DNA of 64,000 nucleotides from positions 10,654-74,653 of the forward strand of contig JBGSPL010000002.1 of assembly GCA_041738615.1 (NCBI GenBank). Direction: 5' to 3'. Below are positions 3,008 to 48,573 of the stretch, piece by piece. The notes beneath the pieces were generated by a model that had not been told where the DNA came from, did not search any database, and saw only the letters and a program-made list of their open reading frames with translations. Numbering within the stretch: position 1 is the first letter of the stretch; each line of letters starts with the position of its first letter. Made by a program: the position numbers and the translations under genes. The DNA is from Patescibacteria group bacterium (lineage in GTDB: Bacteria > Patescibacteriota > CPR2 > UBA1875 > CAIMLA01).

Positions 3008-4378
3008 TTGGAAAAAGAACAGGTCTGGAAATCAGTCCTTGGCGAGCTTGAGGTTTCTCTCTCAAAAGCTAACTTTACAACCTGGTTCAAAAACACTCAG
3101 ATTGTGGCAATCACAGAGACGAGTGCCGTTGTTGGTGTTCCCAACGTTTTCACCAAGGAGTGGCTAGAAAAGAAGTACCATCCGCAGATTCTAGAGGCAA
3201 TCCGCAGCTCAGCGCCTGGGATTACCATAATTGAATACAAAGTGGGTTCTCTAAAGACCCTCGAGAAGGAAGTTGCTAAGGAACAGCCAGTTGTTGTACC
3301 GACCGTAGAGACAACCCCCACATACCAGCCACTCGCCGATAATAATGCCGTTGGCTCAAGCGGAATGAACCCACGCTACACGCTGGATACTTTCGTGGTT
3401 GGCTCTTCAAACAAGCTGGCCTTTGCTGCCTGCCAGAGTGTCGCAGAAAACCCAGGAACCAAATACAACCCTCTCTTTATCTATGGTGGTGTTGGCTTGG
3501 GAAAAACTCACCTGATGCAGGCAGTCGGAAACGCCATTCTAAAGGCGAACCCAAAGAAAAAGGTGGTTTACGTTACTAGCGAGAAGTTCACAAATGACTT
3601 CATCTCTTCTATTACCGACAAAAAAGTTGGCGGCTTCAAAGACAAGTATCGAAAAGTAGATGTTCTGATTGTTGACGACTTGCAGTTTCTCGCCAACAAG
3701 GAACAGACACAGGAAGAATTTTTTCATACTTTTAACGCTCTCCATCAGGCAAATAAGCAGATTATCCTTGCTAGCGACCGCCCACCGAAAGCAATACCTA
3801 CCTTGGAAGAAAGGCTACGTTCACGTTTCGAATGGGGGCTAATGGTGGACATCCAACCGCCTGATCTCGAAACTAGAATCGCAATCCTCCAACGCAAAAG
3901 CCAGGGCCGGGGCTACATAGTCCCACTAGATGTTCTCGACTACATCGCTCGCAATATCCAAAACAATATCCGAGAACTCGAGGGGGCGCTGAACCGCATT
4001 CTTGCATACTGCGAACTAAACGCCGGCGAACCGACACTAGAAGTGACCAAGTCCATCCTCAGCAACCTGATCGCGGGGGCCCGAAGGCGCGGCTTTACTG
4101 CGAGACAAATTGTCGAGAAAGTAGCAGCGTTCTACGACTTGTCGGTAAACGAAGTGTTGGGGTCAAAGAGAGACAAAGAAATTGTCTTCCCCCGCCAGAT
4201 TGCAATGTATCTGATGCGAGAAGAATTGCAACTTTCTTACCCAAAGATTGCTCGCGAGCTAGGCAAGAAGGATCACACTACAGCCATCCATTCGTGTGAC
4301 AAGATCGAAAAGGAACTCGACCATAACGAAGTTCTGCGGCACGAAATCGGTTTAATCAAAGAGCGTCTCTATGGTTAA
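3008..4378 (+). CDS. dnaA: Chromosomal replication initiator DnaA
   Basis: AAA+ Walker A GGVGLGKTHL; C-terminal DNA-binding domain (HTTAIHSCDKIE). TTG start with a GAGGTG SD. Confidence 0.95.
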   Translation: MEKEQVWKSVLGELEVSLSKANFTTWFKNTQIVAITETSAVVGVPNVFTKEWLEKKYHPQILEAIRSSAPGITIIEYKVGSLKTLEKEVAKEQPVVVPTVETTPTYQPLADNNAVGSSGMNPRYTLDTFVVGSSNKLAFAACQSVAENPGTKYNPLFIYGGVGLGKTHLMQAVGNAILKANPKKKVVYVTSEKFTNDFISSITDKKVGGFKDKYRKVDVLIVDDLQFLANKEQTQEEFFHTFNALHQANKQIILASDRPPKAIPTLEERLRSRFEWGLMVDIQPPDLETRIAILQRKSQGRGYIVPLDVLDYIARNIQNNIRELEGALNRILAYCELNAGEPTLEVTKSILSNLIAGARRRGFTARQIVEKVAAFYDLSVNEVLGSKRDKEIVFPRQIAMYLMREELQLSYPKIARELGKKDHTTAIHSCDKIEKELDHNEVLRHEIGLIKERLYG

Positions 4379-18618: not shown

Positions 18619-18837
18619 GGTTCCTCTGTGCTGGCTACCCGCAGGGCTTCCGTTCAAGTCGACCATGACAGCCTCCCTTGGTTTTGGCCCCCGCGGGGGC
18701 GGTGCTAGCGGACAATATACTTCCACGGCTACACATTTGTGAGCGCGTTGTTGCCTTGCTTGCCGCTATAATACAACAAAATTGGCGATATGGCAATGGT
18801 TTCTGTGAAGCCGGCAAACAAATTGATAAAATGAAAA

Positions 18838-18857
18838 AGCCGGCGAGCGCCGGCTTT
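18838..18857. terminator. Hairpin terminator after pilin gene 1 (minus) / bidirectional
   Basis: AAGCCGGC gagc GCCGGCTT, with TTTTTCATTTT on the minus strand. Confidence 0.55.
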
Positions 18858-18873
18858 AAAAGAGCAGAAGTGT

Positions 18874-19227
18874 TTAGTTAGTGATTACGCCACCTATGTT
18901 CTGGCGGATAAATCCAACGATGACGAACGATAGTAGGATCACTACAAGCCCGACGACTGCGTAAAGGATGGTACTCTTTGCGGCTTCGGCACGCTTCTCG
19001 TTGCCTGACGCAGTGATGTACTGTAGGCCGCCTACAATCAGGAAGAGCACAGCTACTACAGCCGAGAATCCTAGTACCCATCCGACGATGTCAGCAAGTA
19101 CCTTCCCGATAGTCAGTGAGCTGTCGTCCACTGTTATGGGAGTGATTGAGCTTGGTGTTTCTGCAAAGGCAGGGGTTGCTGCGAGTAGAGCGAAAGCAGC
19201 CAGGCTGATTTGATTTAGTTTTTTCAT
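18874..19227 (-). CDS. VirB2/TrbC-like T4SS pilin paralog 1
   Basis: Signal peptide plus two TM helices with a conserved GGLQYITASGNEKRAEAAKSTILYAVVGL core shared by all five paralogs. Confidence 0.7.
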   Translation of the reverse strand: MKKLNQISLAAFALLAATPAFAETPSSITPITVDDSSLTIGKVLADIVGWVLGFSAVVAVLFLIVGGLQYITASGNEKRAEAAKSTILYAVVGLVVILLSFVIVGFIRQNIGGVITN

Positions 19228-19255
19228 GTTTCCTCCGTTGTTTATATATTAACTT

Positions 19256-19642
19256 TTAGGACGCTTTTGTTATTGGTATCATGGCTTGAACTACTAGCTG
19301 CACTATCACATATGCTAGTAGTATTACTATAAGTCCCAGCACTGCGTAGGTCAAGGTTTGCTTGGCAGATTCTGCCTGCTTCTCGTTTCCTGCTGCTGTG
19401 ATGTACTGGATGCCGCCCCAAATGATGAAAAGAACTGCAATGGTTCCAGCAAATCCTAGTATCCAGGTTGTAATGTTGCTGATTATTTTGGCAAGGTCGG
19501 ACGTAGTTCCAGTCCCATCTGAGCCACAGGGTGTGATCTCACCGGTTACCCTGTTATACCCACATGCCGCCTGTGTTACTACTGGAGTAAGTGAAGTGAC
19601 ACCCCCGAGGGCAAGTAGCGACAATTTAGAGTTTAGTGACAT
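19256..19642 (-). CDS. VirB2/TrbC-like pilin paralog 2
   Basis: Core GGIQYITAAGNEKQAESAKQTLTYAVLGL. Confidence 0.7.
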   Translation of the reverse strand: MSLNSKLSLLALGGVTSLTPVVTQAACGYNRVTGEITPCGSDGTGTTSDLAKIISNITTWILGFAGTIAVLFIIWGGIQYITAAGNEKQAESAKQTLTYAVLGLIVILLAYVIVQLVVQAMIPITKAS

Positions 19643-19662
19643 GGTTTGTACCTCCTTATTGT

Positions 19663-20007
19663 TTAGTATGGCATCGAGCCGGAGAATACTGCACCAACAA
19701 AATCCCCAGCTATAATGTTTAATATTACGGTTGATAGTAGAACTGCAATTAATCCAATAATAGCATAAGTGAGGGTTTTTTTTGCATCCTCTAAACGTTT
19801 GGGGTTACCGGCAGAAGTCACTAGCTTCACGCCACCAATAACGATAAAGAGCACCGCTATAGCGCCGGCGATTCCCAGCAGCCAGGTACGAACAAATTTT
19901 AGAAATCCATCTAGGCTAGTGCCTTTGTATGTGTCTAGTTTGGCCGCGAAAGAGTAGCTGGGCATGGCTGCAACCGCAATATATAGCATTAGACTTAGCT
20001 TCTTCAT
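19663..20007 (-). CDS. VirB2/TrbC-like pilin paralog 3
   Basis: Core GGVKLVTSAGNPKRLEDAKKTLTYAIIGL. Confidence 0.7.
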   Translation of the reverse strand: MKKLSLMLYIAVAAMPSYSFAAKLDTYKGTSLDGFLKFVRTWLLGIAGAIAVLFIVIGGVKLVTSAGNPKRLEDAKKTLTYAIIGLIAVLLSTVILNIIAGDFVGAVFSGSMPY

Positions 20008-21182
20008 TATAATATCCCTCCACCAATTACCGATGCAAACAGTGAGACGATGAAGTACGAGAGGATAGTGATGAGTAATCCGATAATAGCTGCAGTTAGT
20101 ATCCCCTTTGCCTTGGTCGCCGTCTGTTCGTTTCCGTTAGATCCCATATAGGTAATCCCGCCCAAGATTATCATGATTGTGAATAGTGTTCCTACGATGG
20201 GTAGGAGGACATTATTCATAACATTCTTCACTACCTGTAATACCTCTTTCAGCTCTGTAATAGGTTTGTCGCAGGGTACGCCTGCCAGTATACCGTTGGT
20301 ATAGTAGGTTCCATCGCCTACGCCATCGCCGCACTTGGTCTCTGCATAGTCTGCAGTTTGCGTTTTTGCAGTAGCACTAGCAGAGGCCGGTCCGGAGTCG
20401 TCTTTGGGTGTGGCACCGCTACTACCGCCACTGTCACCACCATCACCACTGTCATCTTTGCCCGCATCAAGAACCTCACTGTCTTTTGGAGGAGTGTCGC
20501 CCTTTTTGCAGGATACTAGCTCTGGATTACTGAGGGTTCCAGTGTATTTGCAGCTATAGGTCGCACCAATGTCGGTGGACTTGGGGTCCCAAGCATAGTT
20601 TGAGTTAGAAAGACTTCTTCCCAGTAAAAGTGAACTTCCAGATGAAGGATTTACCCTATAAACCGTGGTCCCGGTGGAGGAATACTTCTCTAGCTTACCT
20701 TTGACTGGTCCCTTAACCTCTGGGATTGGGCAGACTGCGCAAGTACCCCCTCCCGATTTACTCCAGCTGTACACAACAAGATATCGTAAGCTCAGCTTGA
20801 AGGTTGGATTGCCACAGATAGTCTGATTAGTATATTGTTTTTGGCCTGTAGTACGAGCGTTGCCACCCAAGGACCCATTGGCTTCATAGGTAATCGTCCA
20901 TCCCACATCATTGATCTCAGGACTGTTACAGCGGTAGATTTTTTTTGTAAAGATAAAATACGACCCCTCTGTACGAGAATATATCGCACCATAGGATACG
21001 TTGCTCTTCGTTATCTTTACGACAACGTCACTTGAATTGTAACTATTTACAGGCACTTTAACAGTAACAGTGGTTTGTGTCATGACGGCGGCATTGCTTG
21101 AGCTTGGAGCCAAAATAAAACAAAACGCAATTGCAAAGTACAGCAAGATACGGTTTAGTTTTGCGTACTTTAATTCACCCAT
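20007..21182 (-). CDS. Pilin-fusion protein: ~300 aa Cys-containing beta-rich N-terminal domain, Gly/Ser/Asp linker, C-terminal VirB2-like pilin module
   Basis: C-terminus GGITYMGSNGNEQTATKAKGILTAAIIGL matches the pilin core. The N-terminal domain has a signal peptide and several Cys. Confidence 0.6.
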   Translation of the reverse strand: MGELKYAKLNRILLYFAIAFCFILAPSSSNAAVMTQTTVTVKVPVNSYNSSDVVVKITKSNVSYGAIYSRTEGSYFIFTKKIYRCNSPEINDVGWTITYEANGSLGGNARTTGQKQYTNQTICGNPTFKLSLRYLVVYSWSKSGGGTCAVCPIPEVKGPVKGKLEKYSSTGTTVYRVNPSSGSSLLLGRSLSNSNYAWDPKSTDIGATYSCKYTGTLSNPELVSCKKGDTPPKDSEVLDAGKDDSGDGGDSGGSSGATPKDDSGPASASATAKTQTADYAETKCGDGVGDGTYYTNGILAGVPCDKPITELKEVLQVVKNVMNNVLLPIVGTLFTIMIILGGITYMGSNGNEQTATKAKGILTAAIIGLLITILSYFIVSLFASVIGGGIL

Positions 21183-21547
21183 GGTACCCCCACCACATAT
21201 TGTAAAAAGAATCTACCGAGAACTATGACCGCTACTCCCGAAAGGGCTCCAAACATCAACTTCTTCGAAAGCTCTATCTGCTTACTATTACCCGCACTGC
21301 CCATATATATAATACCGGCCGCAATGAGAACTACGGTAGCGAGGAGCAAGATGGCGGTCTGTGACCAGCTAAAAACTTTTGCGATGTAGGCTGTAAGAGC
21401 CTCGTTGTCATCGGGTTTAAGGCTCTTGAAAAGTCTGAATTCTACAGTTTCTGCGAATGCGAAGTGAGGAGACAGGAGAAGAAGCAACCCGCAGGTTGTG
21501 CTGGCAAGCTTTGTGCATCTGAGTGTGGCCAGGAGTTTTCTAACCAT
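21170..21547 (-). CDS. VirB2/TrbC-like pilin paralog 5
   Basis: Core AGIIYMGSAGNSKQIELSKKLMFGALSGV. Confidence 0.6.
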   Translation of the reverse strand: MVRKLLATLRCTKLASTTCGLLLLLSPHFAFAETVEFRLFKSLKPDDNEALTAYIAKVFSWSQTAILLLATVVLIAAGIIYMGSAGNSKQIELSKKLMFGALSGVAVIVLGRFFLQYVVGVPWVN

Positions 21548-21557
21548 AATTCCTCGT

Positions 21558-22019
21558 TTAGCTTACTTTGAGCTTACGTAGCTTGTTTGTCTCGGCTTTT
21601 GGCACGCGGATAGTTAGGATGCCCTTGGAAAAATCAGCCCTTGCCTCGTCAGCGAGCCCCTTCTTTGGCAATGTAATTGTACGAGAGAAAGACCCCCAGT
21701 AGCACTCTTGTGCGTGGTAAGAGCCTAGGTCTACCTCTTTGATTTCCTTGCGTTCGCCCCGGATGATGACAATCTCGTCGGTAACCGTGATGTCGATGTC
21801 GTCTCCGCCCACTCCAGCAATTGGGGCTTTGATCACGACGTCCTTAACCGTTTCATAGACATCAACGGCCAGCTGCCCGTCAAGTGCTGGCTCTTCGGGT
21901 GCCTCTACCAGGGGGCCTTCCAGCCAATCTTCGGTCAGTATATTATCCTCGAGAAAAAAGCTCTCCTCTGTAACTGGGCTTGGAGCTGTTTTTACCTTTG
22001 GTTTTGGCATCATCATCAT
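21558..22019 (-). CDS. Small heat-shock protein, Hsp20/alpha-crystallin family
   Basis: ACD domain (GILTIRVPKAE C-terminal signature). Start at ATGATGATGATG with a GGAGGGG SD; the annotated longer ORF is an N-terminal over-extension. Confidence 0.85.
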   Translation of the reverse strand: MMMMPKPKVKTAPSPVTEESFFLEDNILTEDWLEGPLVEAPEEPALDGQLAVDVYETVKDVVIKAPIAGVGGDDIDITVTDEIVIIRGERKEIKEVDLGSYHAQECYWGSFSRTITLPKKGLADEARADFSKGILTIRVPKAETNKLRKLKVS

Positions 22020-22133
22020 TATGTCCCCTCCCTTAGTGTATTTGTTAAATCTATTGTGCCACGGGTAAATAATAATAGCAATAGGCAAAATATCCGTAAA
22101 AGCCAACTTTTGAGCACGAATTAGTTCAAAACT

Positions 22134-22220
22134 ATGCGGCCGCACAAGAATAGACTGGATGCGATATGTTGTAATGTTTGGATATTTAGCCACGAACCGC
22201 TCATTTGTATGCGGCCGCAT
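22134..22220. promoter_or_regulatory. Two copies of the palindrome ATGCGGCCGCA(T/C) in the Hsp20 / regulator divergent promoter region
   Basis: Copies at 22134-22145 and 22209-22220. The second overlaps the putative -35 of the regulator gene. Confidence 0.5.
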
Positions 22221-22278
22221 ATTATTAGACATTTACATTATCTGGGTATACTATAGTAGCAAGCTTGGGAGGGTGTTT

Positions 22279-22839
22279 ATGGTCAGCTCGCGTACAAAGG
22301 GTCGGATTCTGACCCGTATGATACTTATGACTCTAGCAGAAGCCGGCGGAGGCCTGGTGGAGTCATTTCTCGATCCTTACGGGAGGACTAGGTTTGCGAA
22401 CCAGTTTATCGAGAAAGGCAAGATTGATCGGATGCGCATGCGCAAGAAACTACTGGCCCTGGAAAAACAGGGTTTGCTTACGGTAAGGGAAAAGAAGAAC
22501 GAGATTACAATCTCCCTAGAGGCAGCAGGATTACTGCAGGCCCATAAATACAAGATCGAAGATATGAAGCTAGCGCGTCCTGACCACTGGGATCGCAAAT
22601 GGCGTATGGTTCTCTTTGACGTTCCGGAGGAAAGCCGTTCGGTGCGTAATATCTTCAAGAAGAAGCTCGACGATTTGGCCTTTGTGCAACTTCAACATAG
22701 CGTTTACGTACACCCTTACGCTTGCCATAACGAGATCGAATACATTCGTACGGCTTATGATATAAAACAATATGTGAAGATGGTAATCGTCGACAAGATA
22801 GAGGGCGATACCGTGCTCCGTAAGCACTTCGATTTATAA
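22279..22839 (+). CDS. Winged-helix transcriptional regulator with a Cas2/PaaX-C-like C-terminal domain (PaaX-like)
   Basis: N-terminal wHTH-like region (ILTRMILMTLAEAGGG...LEKQGLL). C-terminal block WRMVLFDVPEESRSVRNIFKKKLDDLAFVQLQHSVYV. GGGAGGG SD. Confidence 0.4.
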   Translation: MVSSRTKGRILTRMILMTLAEAGGGLVESFLDPYGRTRFANQFIEKGKIDRMRMRKKLLALEKQGLLTVREKKNEITISLEAAGLLQAHKYKIEDMKLARPDHWDRKWRMVLFDVPEESRSVRNIFKKKLDDLAFVQLQHSVYVHPYACHNEIEYIRTAYDIKQYVKMVIVDKIEGDTVLRKHFDL

Positions 22840-22867
22840 CAGTTTTGGTCACAAATGGTCCGTTTCT

Positions 22868-22879
22868 ATGCGGCCGCAT
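22868..22879. promoter_or_regulatory. Third ATGCGGCCGCAT palindrome, upstream of comFC
   Basis: Exact 12-mer match; flanks (tctATGCGGCCGCATcatatta) resemble copy 2. Confidence 0.45.
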
Positions 22880-22962
22880 CATATTAAACAACACCGAGTG
22901 CAATTGTTGCTTTCGGGAGGTAATCCATAAAAGAGCTATTTGTCTACCTTGCAGAGAATGCC

Positions 22963-23619
22963 GTGGAGGCGATCTTCCCCTACAAGTGTAGTTGTGGAAA
23001 GTGGGGGAAACCTCTTTGCGAAGCCTGTTTTGCTGCCATCCATGATACAAAGTCAGAGCTTTGCCCATTCTGCAAGAGGCTTTCCGACTTTGGCCGTGTG
23101 TGTAGCTCCTGCCGACATAAATCAAACCTCACAGGTGTGATGGTGGTAGGGCCGCACGATGGAGTGCTAAAGTCCTCAATATGGAGGCTCAAGTACGGCC
23201 CTTTAAAGGCAATAGCGGAGCCTCTGGCCGAAATAGTGGTCACAAAGTATGGAGAATTTCTTCGAGAGAAACGATTCGTGGTTACCTTCGCTCCGGCAAG
23301 CAAATACAGGCTAAATTTACGGGGTTATAATCAAGCAGAAGAGCTTGCAACCATAGTTGCAGGGCAGTCGGGTCTCCAGGTGCAAAGTAGCATGACAAGG
23401 CCAAAAGATGTGCTGCACCAAGTGGGACTAACTCGTAAGGAGAGGCTAGAGAACGTGGTGGGTACCATTATTTATAGTGGCCCTAGCGAGCTTGTGAGTA
23501 AAAAGATCATAGTCATCGACGATGTTTATACCACAGGCGCAACACTAGAGGAGTGCGCTAAAGTGTTACGGGCAGCCGGATATAGGGAGGTGTGGGGACT
23601 GGTGCTGAGTAGGGACTAG
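22963..23619 (+). CDS. comFC: ComF family protein (ComFC, phosphoribosyltransferase-like competence protein)
   Basis: N-terminal Cys4 zinc finger; C-terminal PRTase motif IVIDDVYTTGATL. Confidence 0.7.
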   Translation: MEAIFPYKCSCGKWGKPLCEACFAAIHDTKSELCPFCKRLSDFGRVCSSCRHKSNLTGVMVVGPHDGVLKSSIWRLKYGPLKAIAEPLAEIVVTKYGEFLREKRFVVTFAPASKYRLNLRGYNQAEELATIVAGQSGLQVQSSMTRPKDVLHQVGLTRKERLENVVGTIIYSGPSELVSKKIIVIDDVYTTGATLEECAKVLRAAGYREVWGLVLSRD

Positions 23620-27557: not shown

Positions 27558-28040
27558 TTACAGTCTGAACCACCGCATCAAAGTGTCTGCAATGTTCTCT
27601 GTGCGATTGCCTTCTTCGGGGATGTATTTCCCTATTGCTGCGCGAATTTTTACCGGATCTACATCACCAAGCATAATAGTAAGTTGTGGCAAATACTTCT
27701 TTTGAAAGATTATGTTCAACGAAGGGTGGTTCCGGTGTAGCAAGAACCAAAAGGAATACATTTCGTTATAGGGGTAGAAGCGAGTATCTATGTAAAGCCC
27801 AAGCTGTGAGAATCGGTAGGTTTTCTCGACAGGACTTTGCTGTTGGTACCAATACATAAAGCCGATGAGGACGACTATTATGGCAGCGCCATACCAATCT
27901 CCTGTGTACAGCGAGTATCCGATAACGCCCAAGAAAAATAAGCCGATTACTGCGTAGTATGCCGTAGAACGGGTATATTCTGGGTACTCTTTTGCCTTCC
28001 AGGCTACGAGTACGGTTTCTTTAGTGTCTTCCTCCGCCAT
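27558..28040 (-). CDS. Two-TM membrane protein with a PH-like C-terminal domain (hypothetical)
   Basis: Start MAEEDTKETV; two hydrophobic helices. The longer annotated ORF overlaps the rubrerythrin gene. Confidence 0.4.
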   Translation of the reverse strand: MAEEDTKETVLVAWKAKEYPEYTRSTAYYAVIGLFFLGVIGYSLYTGDWYGAAIIVVLIGFMYWYQQQSPVEKTYRFSQLGLYIDTRFYPYNEMYSFWFLLHRNHPSLNIIFQKKYLPQLTIMLGDVDPVKIRAAIGKYIPEEGNRTENIADTLMRWFRL

Positions 28041-28119
28041 GACTTCATTATACAAAGTATATTTGGAAAAGTAAAAGTTATAAAATGACCCACCTAGTGG
28101 TGGGTCATTCGGACTTTGT

Positions 28120-28701
28120 TTAGTAATTCTCGGAGAGGAGCTGATAGAAAGCTTGTGGGTGCTCACAGACTGGGCAAACTTTTGGTGGCTCGGTTCCTTC
28201 GTGGACGTATCCACATTCACGGCAGCACCACCACACTTTTTCGCCGCGCTTAAAGATCATGCCACTTTCCACAAGAGAAAGTAGTTTGGTGTATCTTTCC
28301 TCATGATGTGCCTCTGCCTCGGCAATATCGGTGAGTCGGTTGGAAATGATAGTGAGACCTTCCTCTTTGGCGACCTTAGCAAACTCTGGGTACATCTGGC
28401 TAGTCTCGAAGTGTTCACCGGCAATTGATGCCTTCAGGTTCTCTAGGGTCGTGTCCCAGACGTTTGGGACCTCTGTAGGAATTTGGATCGCAGGATAGTT
28501 CACGTCATTATTCTTGAGCTCCTGGATATGGCCCATGAGCATCTTGGCGTGAGTTTTTTCCTGGTTAGCAGTTTCCTCAAACACGCCAGCAATCTGTTCG
28601 TAACCTTCTTTGCGAGCAACCGATGCGTATATGGTGTAGCGATTGCGGGCTTGGCTTTCGCCAGCAAAAGCTTTGGCTAGATTCTCGATAGTTTTCTGCA
28701 T
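28120..28701 (-). CDS. rbr: Rubrerythrin
   Basis: Ferritin-like diiron domain with E...E..H motifs, plus a C-terminal rubredoxin-like CxxC...CxxC. Confidence 0.9.
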   Translation of the reverse strand: MQKTIENLAKAFAGESQARNRYTIYASVARKEGYEQIAGVFEETANQEKTHAKMLMGHIQELKNNDVNYPAIQIPTEVPNVWDTTLENLKASIAGEHFETSQMYPEFAKVAKEEGLTIISNRLTDIAEAEAHHEERYTKLLSLVESGMIFKRGEKVWWCCRECGYVHEGTEPPKVCPVCEHPQAFYQLLSENY

Positions 28702-28710
28702 ATCTTCTCC

Positions 28711-29139
28711 TTATGCTTTAATGATTTGTTCGCGCCTGTTCTCAGCGTCAGGGGTACCACTTAGGTTATCCCAAAGGCCGTGTACGTTACAGTAAATCGT
28801 CACCAGGTAATCTTCACCCTCCGGGAGTCTAAAAGTAGCTCTAGGGGCCTCTCCTGCGCTCAGGAACTTACGAAATGAGGTTGTGGCGGTGGCAAGTTCT
28901 ATCCACTCGATGTAATGCTCAGGCAACATTGGATGTTCCACAGTTCCCACGACTACTTCTACTTTACTGTCGAGAGCTGTAACCACCGGCACATGTTTCT
29001 CGTGACCCTCAGGGCCGTTGCTTGGTACGAGCAATACCATTGGTTCACCGCAGCATTTGAGTGTTCCGTGGCCTGCATCAAGCACGGAAACTATGTTTCC
29101 GCATTCCTCGCACTTGTAATAGTTTTTTCGTAATGCCAT
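28711..29139 (-). CDS. dfx: Desulfoferrodoxin-type superoxide reductase (2Fe-SOR)
   Basis: N-terminal desulforedoxin CxxC...CC. C-terminal SOR domain with His ligands and YCNVHGLW. Confidence 0.8.
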   Translation of the reverse strand: MALRKNYYKCEECGNIVSVLDAGHGTLKCCGEPMVLLVPSNGPEGHEKHVPVVTALDSKVEVVVGTVEHPMLPEHYIEWIELATATTSFRKFLSAGEAPRATFRLPEGEDYLVTIYCNVHGLWDNLSGTPDAENRREQIIKA

Positions 29140-29171
29140 TTCTACCTCGCTTTCCACTTCTATTTTAACAT

Positions 29172-29220: not shown

Positions 29221-29982
29221 TTATCGTAGAGTTCCACCCCATACCTGCCAAGCAAGAAGCGCCTTGGCAACTAGTGAGAAGGTGATGTAAGCGTACTCAC
29301 CGTAGAGGTAATCCTGCCATTTACCAATCTTTTTGTATTGAAGAATCATATTTACCGAGAAGACGTTGAAGGCGATAAAAAGGCTCCAAAAGATTGCGTA
29401 GACAAAGTTAGGGACAGCATCTCCACCGGCGGCAAGGGCATTATAGAAATATAGTCCCATCACTACCCATGGCATCGCCCCGGCAAAACAACCGAAAAGA
29501 TACGCAGTCCAGTCGGTCTTCTTGGTGGTTTGGTTGTGGACTTCCATCATCCAGCCAAAGAGAATCATGCAGGCATTTAGTGAGAAGATCAGAATTAAGG
29601 TAGATAAATCGTAGATACCACAAAGTATGGCAATCACCACGACCATCATCGAAGATGTGATAGCATACTCTGCCCAGCGAAATAGATTGATGCCCTTCTG
29701 AATCTGCTCTTCGTACTTTTTGCGCCATACGAAAGCATTACCGAGTAGAAATAGCCCAGAAAGCAGTAGAAATGAAGCCACGATAGGACCGAGGCGCCAC
29801 TGCGCAAAATTCGCGACTAGGGTGGTTGGCATTCCTGGAATATTACTGTTCTTGCCTAGGTAGCTAGTAGTAATTTGTGCGGCGCTGTCGTTTGAAATCG
29901 CCCACATTAGCACACCCTGTGCAAACAGTAGTACTCCGACTACAGAATTGTAGATCCAGAGATTATTTAGTTTCTTTTCCAT
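29221..29982 (-). CDS. Heliorhodopsin (seven-TM retinal protein, inverted topology)
   Basis: As recalled (not searched), extensive identity to heliorhodopsin 48C12. Examples: NLFRWAEYAITSSMMVVVIAILCGI, NACMILFGW, FGCFAGAMPW. The Schiff-base lysine sits in YAYITFSLVAKALLAWQVWGGTL. Confidence 0.85.
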   Translation of the reverse strand: MEKKLNNLWIYNSVVGVLLFAQGVLMWAISNDSAAQITTSYLGKNSNIPGMPTTLVANFAQWRLGPIVASFLLLSGLFLLGNAFVWRKKYEEQIQKGINLFRWAEYAITSSMMVVVIAILCGIYDLSTLILIFSLNACMILFGWMMEVHNQTTKKTDWTAYLFGCFAGAMPWVVMGLYFYNALAAGGDAVPNFVYAIFWSLFIAFNVFSVNMILQYKKIGKWQDYLYGEYAYITFSLVAKALLAWQVWGGTLR

Positions 29983-34291: not shown

Positions 34292-35356
34292 TTACGCTAA
34301 TTTGTAGTTTGGGTCAGGAGTAAGGTCTTCTGGGTTTGTATAATCACTAATTTGGGCATGAAAATAGGCGGCGGCCGCGATCATGGCGGCATTATCGGTG
34401 CAACACGTAGGCTCCGGGTAAAAGAATTTCGAGTTTTGTGTTCCGAGTTTCGACTTGATCTGTTCCCTCAGGGAAACGTTGGCTGCCACGCCCCCAGAAA
34501 GTAAGATTGATGTTGGCTTGTGCTTTGTAACTGCACGTACGAGGTTGCGGGCCAATATCTCGTTTGCAGTGTATTGGAAAGAGGCTGCAATATCGGCTTT
34601 TTCGGCTTCGCCGAGGGTGTTGCCTTGTTTCTCGAGTTCTCTTACCTTGCGGATGACAGCACTTTTGAGCCCAGAATATGAAAAGTCTAGAGACTCCTCA
34701 GCTTCAACCATAAAGCCGTCTACACCTCTTTTGGGCGCTGCGGTCAGATCGACTAGAGGAAATGCGTATTTGTGTTTGTCGCCTTTTTGGCTTAAAAAGG
34801 ATATTAACGGCCCTCCTGGATAACCAAGTCCGAGCAGCTTGGCGACCTTATCGTAAGCTTCCCCAGCCGCGTCGTCGTGTGTTTCGCCGATGATCTTGTA
34901 CTCCAGGTGGCCTTTCATATAAAGCAGGTTGGTGTGCCCACCGGATACCGTTAGGCATACTAGAGGAAATGTGGGTACGTTGTTATCGTCTTTGTGCAGC
35001 CAATTAGCGTACACATGACCTTCCGTATGGTGAACCGCAATTAGTGGTTTCTGATGCAATAGTGCTAGAGTGCGAGCAGTATTTACCCCCACAATCAAAG
35101 AACCCACAAGGCCAGGGCCCTTGGTAACTGCTATCGCATCGATGTCTTCCCAGGTAACTGCAGCCTCGCGCAGGGCTTCGTCTAGCACTGGTATCATATT
35201 TTGTATATGGGCTCTTGCGGCGACTTCTGGTACCACCCCCCCATACTGAGAGTGTTCTAGCTGGGTAGCCACAACCGAACTTAGGACATAAGTGCCATCC
35301 TCAACGATTGCAACCGAGGTGTCATCACAGCTTGTTTCAATAGCAAGTATTTTCAT
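34292..35356 (-). CDS. tsaD: tRNA N6-adenosine threonylcarbamoyltransferase TsaD (Kae1/YgjD)
   Basis: MKILAIETSCDDTSVAIV N-terminus; conserved His pair HHTEGH. Confidence 0.9.
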   Translation of the reverse strand: MKILAIETSCDDTSVAIVEDGTYVLSSVVATQLEHSQYGGVVPEVAARAHIQNMIPVLDEALREAAVTWEDIDAIAVTKGPGLVGSLIVGVNTARTLALLHQKPLIAVHHTEGHVYANWLHKDDNNVPTFPLVCLTVSGGHTNLLYMKGHLEYKIIGETHDDAAGEAYDKVAKLLGLGYPGGPLISFLSQKGDKHKYAFPLVDLTAAPKRGVDGFMVEAEESLDFSYSGLKSAVIRKVRELEKQGNTLGEAEKADIAASFQYTANEILARNLVRAVTKHKPTSILLSGGVAANVSLREQIKSKLGTQNSKFFYPEPTCCTDNAAMIAAAAYFHAQISDYTNPEDLTPDPNYKLA

Positions 35357-35418
35357 GCGGTAATATTACCACAAATCACTCTGCTAAACACAAAATTGTG
35401 CGCGAATGTTCTATTCTG

Positions 35419-35430
35419 ATGCGGCCGCAC
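35419..35430. promoter_or_regulatory. Fourth ATGCGGCCGCA palindrome, in the tsaD / femAB divergent region
   Basis: ctgATGCGGCCGCAcagg. Confidence 0.4.
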
Positions 35431-35438
35431 AGGAATGA

Positions 35439-36461
35439 TTGGCCAATATCTGTAATGACATTGACCGTTTGCGCGTGCTAGAATTACACCACATGGATAA
35501 ATTACTCTCGATTCTAACAGACCCAAAAAATAACCTCTTTCAATCGGCGACCTGGGAAGAGTACCAGGAGGCGCTGGGGAATAAGGTTTTTCGTGTTAGT
35601 TGCGATGACAACGCCGCCCTGCTTGTAAAATTGCCGCTGTATAAGGATAAGAGCTATCTTTACTGTCCTAGGGGCCCGATGTGCATGAAAGAGGGCTGGC
35701 ACGTACTTCTCAGGAAAGCACGCGAAATTGCCGCGGCCGAGAATTGCGTTTTCTTGCGAGTAGAACCATACCAACTACCTGCGAAAACTGTAAAAGAGCT
35801 TCGATTCCGCGAAGTTATTTCTTACACGCCTCTTTCTCGCCAATATTCACCCATGGATACCCAGATTCTTGATATAGATAAACGAGATGACGATCTACTG
35901 GCCGAGATGAAACCAAAGTGGCGATATAACATCAAGCTGGGTTACCGCAAGGGAGTACAGATTCGGCAAAGTACAAAACTTACTGATCTGCACAAATTTC
36001 ACGAGCTCTCGTTAGGTATGAAAGACCGCGGTTATACACCATTTGAGCTTGAGCATTACGAGCGATTGCTCTATACGCTGACTCATGGAAAGAACGTGAC
36101 AATGTTCGTTGCGGAGCACAAAAAGAAGGTCCTATCCGTCATTCTAGTGACTTTCTGTGGTGAAGTGGCAACATATCTACACGGCGCCTCTAGTGACGAA
36201 TCCAGAGAGTTAATGCCAAACCACCTAGCGCAATGGGAAGCGATCCTGGAGGCGCAGAGGCGCGGTTGCAAGCTCTATGACTTTTGGGGAGTAGCGCCCG
36301 AGGGAGCAGAGAATCATAGTTGGTCGGGGATCACTCGTTTTAAACAGGGTTTCGGGGGTCGCACCGTACATTTTGTAGGCGCCTACGACGCAGTATTTGA
36401 CGCTAAGTGGTATAATACTTTCTGTTTGGCGAACTTGTTTCGCAAGCTGATAAAGAAATGA
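35439..36461 (+). CDS. FemAB-family aminoacyltransferase (peptidoglycan interpeptide bridge formation)
   Basis: C-terminal block ATYLHGASSDESRELMPNHLAQWEAILEAQRRGCKLYDFWGV matches the FemAB/FemX family core. Confidence 0.6.
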   Translation: MANICNDIDRLRVLELHHMDKLLSILTDPKNNLFQSATWEEYQEALGNKVFRVSCDDNAALLVKLPLYKDKSYLYCPRGPMCMKEGWHVLLRKAREIAAAENCVFLRVEPYQLPAKTVKELRFREVISYTPLSRQYSPMDTQILDIDKRDDDLLAEMKPKWRYNIKLGYRKGVQIRQSTKLTDLHKFHELSLGMKDRGYTPFELEHYERLLYTLTHGKNVTMFVAEHKKKVLSVILVTFCGEVATYLHGASSDESRELMPNHLAQWEAILEAQRRGCKLYDFWGVAPEGAENHSWSGITRFKQGFGGRTVHFVGAYDAVFDAKWYNTFCLANLFRKLIKK

Positions 36462-37771
36462 ATTTAGATAAATTACTCTCAATTTGCAGGAAACTCATAC
36501 CGAAAAAGATATTTAGGTTTTTTCAGCCTGGTTACCACTTGTTGCTAGCTATCACCGGTAATCTTCGCTATGTGTTCCCGGGTAAAAAGCTGATTGTTGT
36601 GGGCATTACAGGGACAAACGGTAAATCTACAACTGCAGAGCTTACGAACTCGGTACTAAAAACAGCAGGCTTCACAACGGGAATGCTTTCTACTGTTTCC
36701 TTCGAGATTGCTGGGAAGAAGGAAGAGAATACTACTAGCCGGACCACTCTAGGCAGATGGCAGCTCCAGAAACGTTTACGTCAAATGGTAGATACGGGAT
36801 GTACCCACGCTGTGTTAGAGGTGGCAAGTGAGGGGCTCTTGATGCACCGTCTTTGGGGGATCCCATTTGACATTGCAGTATTTACGAATCTATCACCAGA
36901 GCATCTAAATACCCACAAAACGATGGATAATTATCGTGAAGCAAAGGGATTACTCTTTGCAGGGCTTGCTAGAGGACTCAAAAAGAATGTACCGAAAACG
37001 ATTATCGTAAACGCGGATGACAAGGTTGCCAAGTATTTCTATTCCTTCGAGGCAGACAGGAAGATTAGCTATGGCCTGTCGAATGGCGAAATCTGGGCAA
37101 CTAATATGGTTTTTGGCGAAAAAACGCAGTTTGAACTTGTAGACGAGGACAAGAAGCACTTGGTAATGTCCGATCTTCCTGCGAAATTTAATATTTACAA
37201 CATACTCGCTGCTTATGCGGTGGGTAAGGCTCTCGAGATAGAACCGAAGAAGATTGTCTCTGGCCTCGAGAAAGTAAAGGCGGTTCGGGGCAGAATGGAA
37301 GAGATTCCAAATACGCGAGACATCAAAATCATGATTGACTATGCTGTGACCCCAGATGCCTTTGAGCTGCTATTCACCGAGCTTCGTCGCGTCAGTAAGG
37401 GTAGGCTAATCGCCGTTTTTGGGGCTACTGGAGACAGGGATAAGGAGAAACGACCCCTGCTAGGACAGGTGGCAGCAAAGATGACGAACTACATTATCCT
37501 AACCGACGAGGAGTCGTACAGCGAGAATCCAGCCGTGATCGTGGATAGCATAGCTGCAGGTGTGGAGAAGGTACGAAAATCAAACTATGAGATTATCTTA
37601 GACCGCCGCGAAGCTCTGAAGCGTGCCATCGAGATTGCAGAGACTGGAGACACGGTGGTGGCAACCGGCATGGGACATGAGAAATATCGGAATCTTGGTG
37701 GGGATAAGAAGGTGGAGTGGGATGAGGCGGAGGTGATTCGCGGGATTCTAGCCGAACTAAATAATAAGTAG
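36458..37771 (+). CDS. murE: Mur ligase family, MurE-like (UDP-MurNAc-L-Ala-D-Glu : diamino-acid ligase)
   Basis: VGITGTNGKSTT, LEVASEGL, FTNLSPEHLNTHKTMDNYREAK. The C-terminal DNPR motif is not conserved (EESY), so specificity is uncertain. ATGA overlap with femAB. Confidence 0.55.
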   Translation: MNLDKLLSICRKLIPKKIFRFFQPGYHLLLAITGNLRYVFPGKKLIVVGITGTNGKSTTAELTNSVLKTAGFTTGMLSTVSFEIAGKKEENTTSRTTLGRWQLQKRLRQMVDTGCTHAVLEVASEGLLMHRLWGIPFDIAVFTNLSPEHLNTHKTMDNYREAKGLLFAGLARGLKKNVPKTIIVNADDKVAKYFYSFEADRKISYGLSNGEIWATNMVFGEKTQFELVDEDKKHLVMSDLPAKFNIYNILAAYAVGKALEIEPKKIVSGLEKVKAVRGRMEEIPNTRDIKIMIDYAVTPDAFELLFTELRRVSKGRLIAVFGATGDRDKEKRPLLGQVAAKMTNYIILTDEESYSENPAVIVDSIAAGVEKVRKSNYEIILDRREALKRAIEIAETGDTVVATGMGHEKYRNLGGDKKVEWDEAEVIRGILAELNNK

Positions 37772-48508: not shown

Positions 48509-48573
48509 TCCAGAACACTATGTTTATCGTAAGGGGCGTTTGTGCTATAATCAGGAAGAATAAGTAGGTGAAA

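Follow-up and report, generated by a model that had tools for sequence, protein, structure and literature searches.

Does a palindrome that recurs around a small heat-shock gene and its divergent neighbour belong, as an operator, to the protein which that neighbour encodes, and does such a pair respond to heat? The question is raised by a locus in a 64,000-nucleotide stretch of DNA from a Patescibacteria group bacterium (GenBank assembly GCA_041738615.1, contig JBGSPL010000002.1, positions 10,654 to 74,653), referred to below as the window. There, hsp20 is divergent from a gene for a protein of 186 amino acids, the regulator, which is followed by comFC. The genome closest to the window is a metagenome-assembled genome of an uncultured Candidatus Saccharibacteria. 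An earlier note on this DNA had seen in the locus a candidate heat-shock repressor with a 12-bp palindromic operator containing a NotI site. From the comparison with related loci we consider it likely that the sites are operators of the adjacent regulator, a member of the PaaX superfamily; that the system is a heat-shock one appears improbable. The positions of all features are collected in Table 1.

Four sites in the window have the 11-mer ATGCGGCCGCA in common. The exact 12-bp palindrome, ATGCGGCCGCAT, is found in two copies only, those of op2 and op3 (the region 21300-23200 was read directly), and the sites op1 and the remote one between tsaD and femAB carry ATGCGGCCGCAC, which matches it at 11 of the 12 positions. 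The earlier note had placed exact copies at 22134 and 22209 in the divergent region, a third at 22868, downstream of the regulator and upstream of comFC, and a fourth at 35419 in the tsaD/femAB region; all four places were right, and the copies at 22209 and 22868 are exact, those at 22134 and 35419 being one base off. Its view that the copies are far above chance was borne out by six strand matches to the 11-mer in the window, where dinucleotide shuffles predict 0.04; not one shuffle in 100 gave six. The intergenic DNA, described as AT-leaning, is not especially so, the GC content of the window being about 47%. The true starts of hsp20 and the regulator are at ATG 22019 and ATG 22279, respectively, each with a GGGAGG ribosome-binding site (RBS) and each in agreement with the starts of the orthologs, and given the true gene starts all four copies of the 11-mer are non-coding in a window that is approximately 93-94% coding. 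The NotI site alone, GCGGCCGC, occurs six times against 0.8 expected, ie it is enriched and not avoided; the two extra copies are coding (34371 in tsaD and 40629 in truB) and are without the ATGC...GCAT arms.

The core is part of a longer element. When 22 sites were aligned by their cores, a full element of about 32 bp emerged, GTYYA-N5-ATGC-N4-GCAT-N5-TAGAC, and at one orthologous locus (L011; loci from other genomes are given by number) it is a perfect 34-bp palindrome. The motif proposed earlier is real, then, with ATGC-N4-GCAT plus the outer arms as its unit instead of the NotI 12-mer. Folding of the window sites was no more stable than that of shuffled sequence (z -0.1 to +0.6). Beside most of the cores, 18-19 nt away on the 5' side only and constant relative to the regulator strand, there is a companion element with the consensus TAAGCACRAA in the same 22-site alignment. 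It was seen in the window and in L003, L006, L008, L010, L004, L011, L014 and L040, and beside op1 it is retained even where the regulator is only 45% identical. A reading of the companion as a minus-strand promoter was suggested by its likeness to the extended -10 context of this organism, TTTGTGCT-TATAAT (eg at 48539 and 26285), and was dropped: position 2 of the hexamer lacks the essential A and there is no properly spaced -35. The four sites are very probably protein-binding cis elements.

Regulator orthologs at 45-91% identity were retrieved together with their flanks. The divergent pair of hsp20 and regulator was seen with all the Saccharibacteria orthologs examined, the most distant of them 45% identical, and the gene order (type IV secretion system (T4SS), pilins, hsp20, then divergent regulator and comFC) is kept in all orthologous loci that are long enough. 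At least nine of these loci have retained the sites in place, with a pair in the divergent region and, in most loci, another behind the regulator; a counterpart of op3 is present in L003, L008, L010, L004 and L011 and absent in L006, L013 and L040. The ATGC and GCAT arms are invariant across the orthologs and degenerate in the most distant ones (GCGAYARCA in L013 and L040). The four central bases vary by genome. They are GGCC in the window, L006 and L010, GACC or its complement GGTC in L003, L008 and L011, and TATA, TACA or CATA in L004; orthologs thus carry the non-palindromic GCGACCGC or TATA centres. Because the central bases differ in this way between genomes, the NotI site is incidental.

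The centre of the tsaD/femAB site follows the genome in which it is found, being GGCC (ATGCGGCCGCAC) in L016 and GACC (ATGCGACCGCAT) in L014. Across the regulator and the tsaD/femAB sites, L006 and L016 share the GGCC centre and L003 and L014 the GACC/GGTC centre. Such a change, shared by all the sites including one 12.5 kb away, is that expected of a single trans-acting protein with drifting specificity. L015, with a rearranged gene order in which femAB is not divergent from tsaD, lacks the tsaD/femAB site. The same locus, from a TATA-type genome, has an extra site, ATGTTATAGCAT, at 505-516, within a longer AT-rich palindrome between the genes for a metallophosphatase and a uracil-DNA glycosylase. 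At the corresponding place in the window there is no site, which means that the genomes differ in the membership of the regulon.

The regulator had been taken for an unfamiliar type, and it turned out to be a truncated PaaX-family protein. Residues 102-175 match PF20803 (PaaX_M, the Cas2-like central domain of PaaX) with an E-value of 2.4e-21 and 76 bits against a cut-off of 24. It is not a PaaX proper by the equivalog model TIGR02277 (29.4 bits against a cut-off of 264.55), and it falls below the cut-off of the Cas2 model TIGR01573 (21.2 against 24.5 bits). The Pfam searches gave no match to PaaX_C, the protein ending at residue 186, no match to the N-terminal PaaX domain at E <= 0.01, and no HrcA, MerR or transposase domain. 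The AlphaFold model (pLDDT 85.7) consists of a winged helix at the N-terminus and a ferredoxin-like domain, with a linker helix between them; the predicted winged helix-turn-helix has the order H-S-H-H-S-S, with the recognition helix at about residues 51-63 and the wing at 67-80. E. coli PaaX (8a39) was the top match in the fold search (E 4e-6, 189 aligned columns), followed by Rv0674 (3kfw), Cas2 and VapD. A sequence search of the PDB found no relative, PaaX being reached by the fold search only, and there is no paralog of the regulator in the window. The regulator is a two-domain protein of the PaaX superfamily, winged helix and PaaX_M without PaaX_C, and not a new fold.

Alignment of the family shows strong conservation of the Cas2-like half (WDRKWR, FD[VI]PE, R123, Q139, S141 and P146) and a variable winged-helix half, which fits a DNA specificity diverging on a constant scaffold. 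D114, which lies in FD[VI]PE and aligns with the catalytic aspartate of Cas2, is invariant. Residue 53 lies where the recognition helix begins; it is Arg in genomes whose centres are GGCC or TATA, and Ile or Gln where the centre is GACC. The stretch from residue 51 to 55 (22429-22443 in the window) reads RMRMR or RYRLR for GGCC, RFRLR for TATA, and RSIMR, RSQMR or RTQMR for GACC. Residues 52 and 53 may be a determinant of specificity, the data points being few and phylogenetically confounded.

The conserved positions of the sites, their co-varying centres and the presence of separate palindromes at the promoters of distant relatives (below) all favour the proposal that these are operators of the adjacent, autoregulated protein. 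That this regulator binds them has a high probability in our estimation, slightly above that of the reading as a whole. It would probably bind the 32-bp element as a dimer or a pair of dimers. At op2, the outer arm TAGAC coincides with the -35 of the predicted regulator promoter, for which reason we favour autorepression; RNA polymerase would be shut out by the bound protein, and the regulator-comFC transcript repressed. The 12-mer, which had been thought to overlap the -35, ends at 22220, 5 nt short of that hexamer; it is the arm of the extended operator that covers it. Both hexamers are aligned and conserved across five orthologous intergenic regions, and the arrangement core-N5-TAGACA-17 nt-(-10) is constant in every ortholog aligned. 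As in other self-repressing pairs, the site lies over the regulator's own core promoter, the promoters here being predicted and not mapped starts, and repression of the regulator gene at op2 is likely. A second regulator promoter after op1 was considered and rejected, the spacing from TAGACT to TAATGT or TGTAAT being just 13-15 nt and unconserved. ComFC is probably co-transcribed with the regulator, and op3, where no terminator-like site was found, would be a second, internal site in that transcript ahead of comFC.

The role of op1 is to be sought on the hsp20 side. Its centre is 75 bp from that of op2 in the window, and among the orthologs this distance ranges from 54 to 228 bp; the distance of op1 to the hsp20 promoter block is conserved. 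With its spacing fixed to that block and variable to op2, op1 belongs to the hsp20-pilin promoter. Behind hsp20, five genes for T4SS-pilin-like proteins follow with gaps of -13 to 28 nt, up to a strong intrinsic terminator at 18857-18836 (AAAGCCGGCGCTCGCCGGCTTT, then a T run), and are probably co-transcribed with it. The chances that this operon is a target are, we estimate, a little better than even. Op1 is centred near -93 of the hsp20 promoter that was inferred from conserved blocks, or near -75 of the alternative found by scanning, both promoters being predicted, and the remote site is centred near -68 of both the predicted tsaD and femAB promoters. From such positions, upstream of the core promoters, the two sites would act by repression from a distance or by activation. 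Phenylacetyl-CoA is unlikely as the releasing signal, because the C-terminal domain of PaaX is absent and there is no paa gene among the genes examined, the neighbours being hsp20, T4SS pilins, comFC and pilB.

Several observations weigh against the proposal that the sites are operators of this regulator. The companion element is one-sided and is unaccounted for by a model of a symmetric dimer. Op1 and the tsaD/femAB site lie about 68-93 bp upstream of the predicted starts, where simple steric repression is insufficient. A repression loop of fixed size between op1 and op2 was rejected, as the spacing of 54-228 bp shows no helical phasing. The long perfect hairpins found on both sides of the gene in distant lineages (below) are unusual for plain operators and could mean another function. 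The view of the regulon takes in approximately 64 kb of this genome and 100 kb of its relatives, and the argument rests on comparative inference throughout.

Table 1. Sites, genes and promoters of the regulator locus and the tsaD/femAB region, with positions counted from the first nucleotide of the window. Operators and promoters are predicted.
Feature	Position	Strand	Details
Regulator gene, 186 aa	22279..22839	+	PF20803; RBS GGGAGGG 22267-22273; start conserved in orthologs
op1	22124..22155	none	core ATGCGGCCGCAC 22134-22145; outer arms GTTCA and TAGAC; hsp20 side of divergent region
op2	22199..22230	none	core ATGCGGCCGCAT 22209-22220; outer arms GCTCA and TAGAC; right arm is regulator -35
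op3	22858..22889	none	core ATGCGGCCGCAT 22868-22879; right arm TAAAC; between regulator stop codon and comFC
Remote operator	35409..35440	none	core ATGCGGCCGCAC 35419-35430; midway between divergent tsaD and femAB promoters
Companion element GAGCACGAAT	22112..22121	+	18-19 nt 5' of op1 core; similar ones by op2 (22187-22196) and op3 (22846-22856)
Predicted regulator promoter	22226..22254	+	-35 TAGACA 22226-22231; 17-nt spacer; -10 TACTAT 22249-22254; consensus scan
Inferred hsp20 promoter	22053..22081	-	-35 TTGCTA 22081-22076; 17 nt; TG-extended -10 CACAAT 22058-22053; conserved alignment blocks
Alternative hsp20 promoter	22100-22072	-	TTTACG-17-TATTAT; consensus scan
hsp20, 153 aa	21558..22019	-	PF00011 E 1.6e-15; first gene of divergent operon
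Five T4SS-pilin-like genes	18836..21547	-	PF18895/PF04956; start 10 nt after hsp20
comFC (ComF family)	22927..23619	+	TIGR00201 E 1.4e-21; N-terminus aligned to orthologs; directly downstream of regulator
tsaD	34292..35356	-	PF00814 E 2.8e-89; flanks remote operator
femAB-family transferase and Mur ligase	35493-36461, 36458-37771	+	PF02388, PF08245; flank remote operator

The alternative that survives best is the one from which the question arose, namely a dedicated heat-shock regulon in which the protein keeps hsp20 off until heat or proteotoxic stress. The constant divergent arrangement of hsp20 and the regulator in Saccharibacteria and the fixed distance of op1 from the hsp20 promoter block fit it. 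An RNA thermometer, or any other RNA element, in the hsp20 leader was considered and rejected: Rfam gave nothing at E <= 1 except a chance, sub-threshold CRISPR-repeat match inside the coding sequence of the regulator, six orthologous leaders had no consensus structure, and the fold of the single sequence had a z of +0.76. Heat control of hsp20 would consequently have to be transcriptional. However, op1 is a long way upstream of the hsp20 core promoter, the window contains no chaperone gene other than hsp20, which heads what is probably one transcript with the five pilin genes, and the remaining sites are at comFC and tsaD/femAB, ie at genes for DNA uptake, tRNA modification and the cell wall. 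CIRCE (TTAGCACTC-N9-GAGTGCTAA) has no match in the window at up to three mismatches, and the distant members of the family are without an hsp20 neighbour. We judge a dedicated heat-shock regulon unlikely on this analysis, and heat as the releasing signal equally doubtful; nothing beyond the hsp20 neighbour indicates it. The stress regulon proposed earlier was not supported, with op1 off the core promoter and a pilin operon behind hsp20. Two further observations concern that operon: all the orthologous loci examined have a small heat-shock gene at the head of a VirB2-like pilin operon, and the genes for the T4SS machinery come after the terminator, with a promoter-like site ahead of them.

The remaining alternatives depend on the wider family in the Candidate Phyla Radiation (CPR). 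An exhaustive search found 2,849 clusters (50% identity) at E <= 1e-3 and 1,590 at E <= 1e-10, and the best 150 matches were almost all 175-200 amino acids long. Public labels for these proteins are 'CRISPR-associated endonuclease Cas2' or 'PaaX' (the Cas2 label at NCBI/JGI, eg for P0129 and P0281). The Cas2 label is probably a systematic mis-annotation; we doubt it because the window protein scores below the Cas2 cut-off and has a winged helix, and no CRISPR array is nearby. Relatives were examined at 23 metagenome loci, where they are 30-39% identical to the regulator except for two close Saccharibacteria matches (69% and 83%). Searches with tblastn found no hsp20 neighbour at any of the distant loci.

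Most of the distant loci have a palindrome of like build directly upstream of the gene. Its sequence is TATTTGCTATAGCAAATA in L002, L023 and L025, TTATGCTGGAGCATAA in L019, TATATGCGACCGCATATA in L027 and TTGCTCGCGACCGCGAGCAA in L032, with others in L021, L026, L034 and L038. Perfect arms of 14-21 bp are present in seven of 13 distinct distant loci, and none of 200 shuffles reached such arms. By reading of the upstream sequences, the palindromes appear to overlap a predicted -35 or -10 in L019, L026, L027, L032 and L038. In seven distant loci a second copy follows, a few to approximately 85 nt past the stop codon; the paired copies are at 4112/4848 in L002, 3934/4588 in L021, 718/1408 in L027, 588/1227 in L032, 3714/4354 in L034, 3715/4353 in L038 and 3953/4563 in L029. 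Convergent genes flank five of the seven downstream copies. Two downstream copies, those of L002 and L021, were folded and gave very stable hairpins (z -6 to -8). In L034, the start and stop codons are inside the palindrome arms.

These loci allow a broader proposal, in which proteins of this build (winged helix-turn-helix and Cas2-like domain) are CPR-wide, self-contained modules, each bracketed by its own palindrome. The Cas2-like half, with its invariant aspartate, might then serve for more than dimerisation; it would cut or remodel hairpin or cruciform DNA or RNA, or would sense a nucleic-acid or nucleotide signal, and in Saccharibacteria the module would have been recruited for the T4SS-pilin/hsp20 operon and comFC, which plausibly have a part in life as an epibiont. 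We regard this as a speculation with little probability, somewhat less than that of the heat-shock regulon. If true, it would make of the family a new class of palindrome-directed control element, not a plain repressor.

A different protein, encoded elsewhere, could bind the sites, the PaaX-like gene being merely one of its targets. The link between protein and site is drawn from sequence, and the remote tsaD/femAB site proves that action is in trans. Against this, up to three of the four sites flank the regulator gene across the orthologs, and in unrelated lineages palindromes of a different sequence again flank the homologous gene. The winged-helix half also varies along with the palindrome, and residue 53 tracks the centre of the operator, albeit on few data points. 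We consider another binding factor quite improbable.

Still less probable is that the palindromes are selfish or structural hairpin repeats and that the Cas2-like protein is their nuclease or mobiliser, in the manner of REP/RAYT, or binds a hairpin in its own mRNA. The distant genes bracketed by identical, perfect palindromes of 30-40 bp with z of -6 to -8 speak for it, as do the nuclease folds of Cas2 and VapD and the invariance of D114. In the clade of the window, however, the bases between the arms lack self-complementarity and form no fold, and op2 is upstream of the -35 and hence outside the regulator mRNA. The gene order is stable across 45-91% identity with no sign of mobility, and the copies number three to four per 64 kb, at orthologous promoter positions and with a fixed spacing to the -35. 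Furthermore, the domain is shared with PaaX, whose action as a repressor is proven (PMC9493321).

That the sites are no operators at all, and are instead NotI-type restriction-modification targets, DNA-uptake sequences or intrinsic terminators, is suggested by GCGGCCGC in the core, by comFC and pilus genes nearby and by the position of op3 after a stop codon, and can practically be dismissed, as GCGGCCGC is enriched and orthologs have GCGACCGC or TATA centres, four copies per 64 kb clustered at one or two loci are far too few for uptake, and the sites have no stable stem or T run. A link to CRISPR was likewise rejected, with no repeat array in the window and the protein under the Cas2 cut-off.

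A comparison with known systems places the regulator, read as a self-repressing operator-binding protein, nearest to PaaX. PaaX is a phenylacetyl-CoA-responsive repressor of the paa genes (E. coli W, Pseudomonas), for which a 15-bp motif, WWTRTGATTCGYGWT, is known. The E. coli protein represses itself, blocking RNA polymerase at its own Px promoter by steric hindrance, and its operator is TGATTC-N27-GAATCA (PMC9493321). The shared features are the Cas2-like PaaX_M behind a winged helix, operators that are inverted repeats with their arms far apart and, as predicted here, repression of the own promoter. In contrast to PaaX, which has about 305-316 amino acids and the PaaX_C domain, the protein of 186 residues has no PaaX_C, the operator differs from both TGATTC-N27-GAATCA and WWTRTGATTCGYGWT, and the predicted targets are hsp20 and the T4SS pilins, comFC and tsaD/femAB. 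The system would work like that of PaaX, and by architecture, operator and gene context it is not PaaX proper. Rv0674 of M. tuberculosis (3kfw) and a PaaX-like protein of Jannaschia (3l09) have the same two N-terminal domains (structure search, E 5e-3 and 2e-2, respectively), but are longer (234-253 amino acids) and have a C-terminal helical domain.

HrcA/CIRCE and HspR/HAIR resemble the locus in the association of an inverted-repeat operator with a chaperone gene and in the autoregulation (predicted here) of the regulator. They differ in protein fold and operators, most targets here are not chaperones, and the operator is upstream of the hsp20 core promoter, whereas CIRCE and HAIR are over or after theirs. 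With Cas2 and VapD the regulator shares the fold of its C-terminal half and a conserved aspartate after the first strand. Unlike Cas2, it has an N-terminal winged helix and a Cas2 score under the cut-off; the window showed no CRISPR-like repeat array, and cas1 was absent from the genes examined. The likeness to REP/RAYT is in a gene bracketed by palindromes which occur at other intergenic places, with repeat and protein changing together. Unlike REP/RAYT, there is no Y1 transposase, there are four copies in 64 kb at conserved promoter positions in a syntenic locus, and no stable hairpin is formed in this clade.

CPR bacteria (Patescibacteria) have small genomes and few regulators, and we know of no experimentally defined pair of transcription factor and operator in Saccharibacteria or another CPR lineage. 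Our literature search found no paper joining PaaX-like proteins to Saccharibacteria or other CPR, or PaaX to Cas2, and none on Saccharibacteria with Hsp20; a preprint on the transcriptome of TM7x covers the T4SS region and names no regulator. The locus offers a concrete, testable pair, a protein of 186 amino acids and a site of 32 bp, and with the centres GGCC, GACC or TATA by genome a natural series of specificities. The predicted regulon is small, comprising T4SS pilins, a small heat-shock protein, the competence gene comFC and cell-wall genes, functions of the kind thought to underlie the attachment of these bacteria to their hosts and the acquisition of DNA from them. The analysis also corrects a label, 'CRISPR-associated endonuclease Cas2', which recurs in a large family. 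If the regulator is simply a repressor, it is a useful and ordinary addition to the PaaX superfamily.

Some further observations were made on the genes of the window. All orthologs start comFC with ATG (MKEL/MQEL...), and in the window (22915-22965) the corresponding codon is ATA (22927-22929), 6 nt past a GGGAGG RBS and immediately after an in-frame TAA. The next canonical start is GTG 22963, 12 codons on, with no obvious RBS. The ATA could be a non-canonical start or a sequencing error, or ComFC could be shortened at its N-terminus. Between tsaD and femAB (35354-35495), where the femAB orthologs start at ATG 35493, both genes have apparent TG-extended -10 elements, TGTGGTAATAT and TGCTAGAAT, that end 6-8 nt before the ATG, which suggests that both mRNAs may be leaderless. 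The presence of dnaA at 3008-4378 may mean that the window is near the replication origin. A heliorhodopsin gene is found at 29221-29982, and the open reading frames just upstream of it (27558-29157) are, by synteny with L003 and L016, likely genes for rubrerythrin and desulfoferrodoxin.

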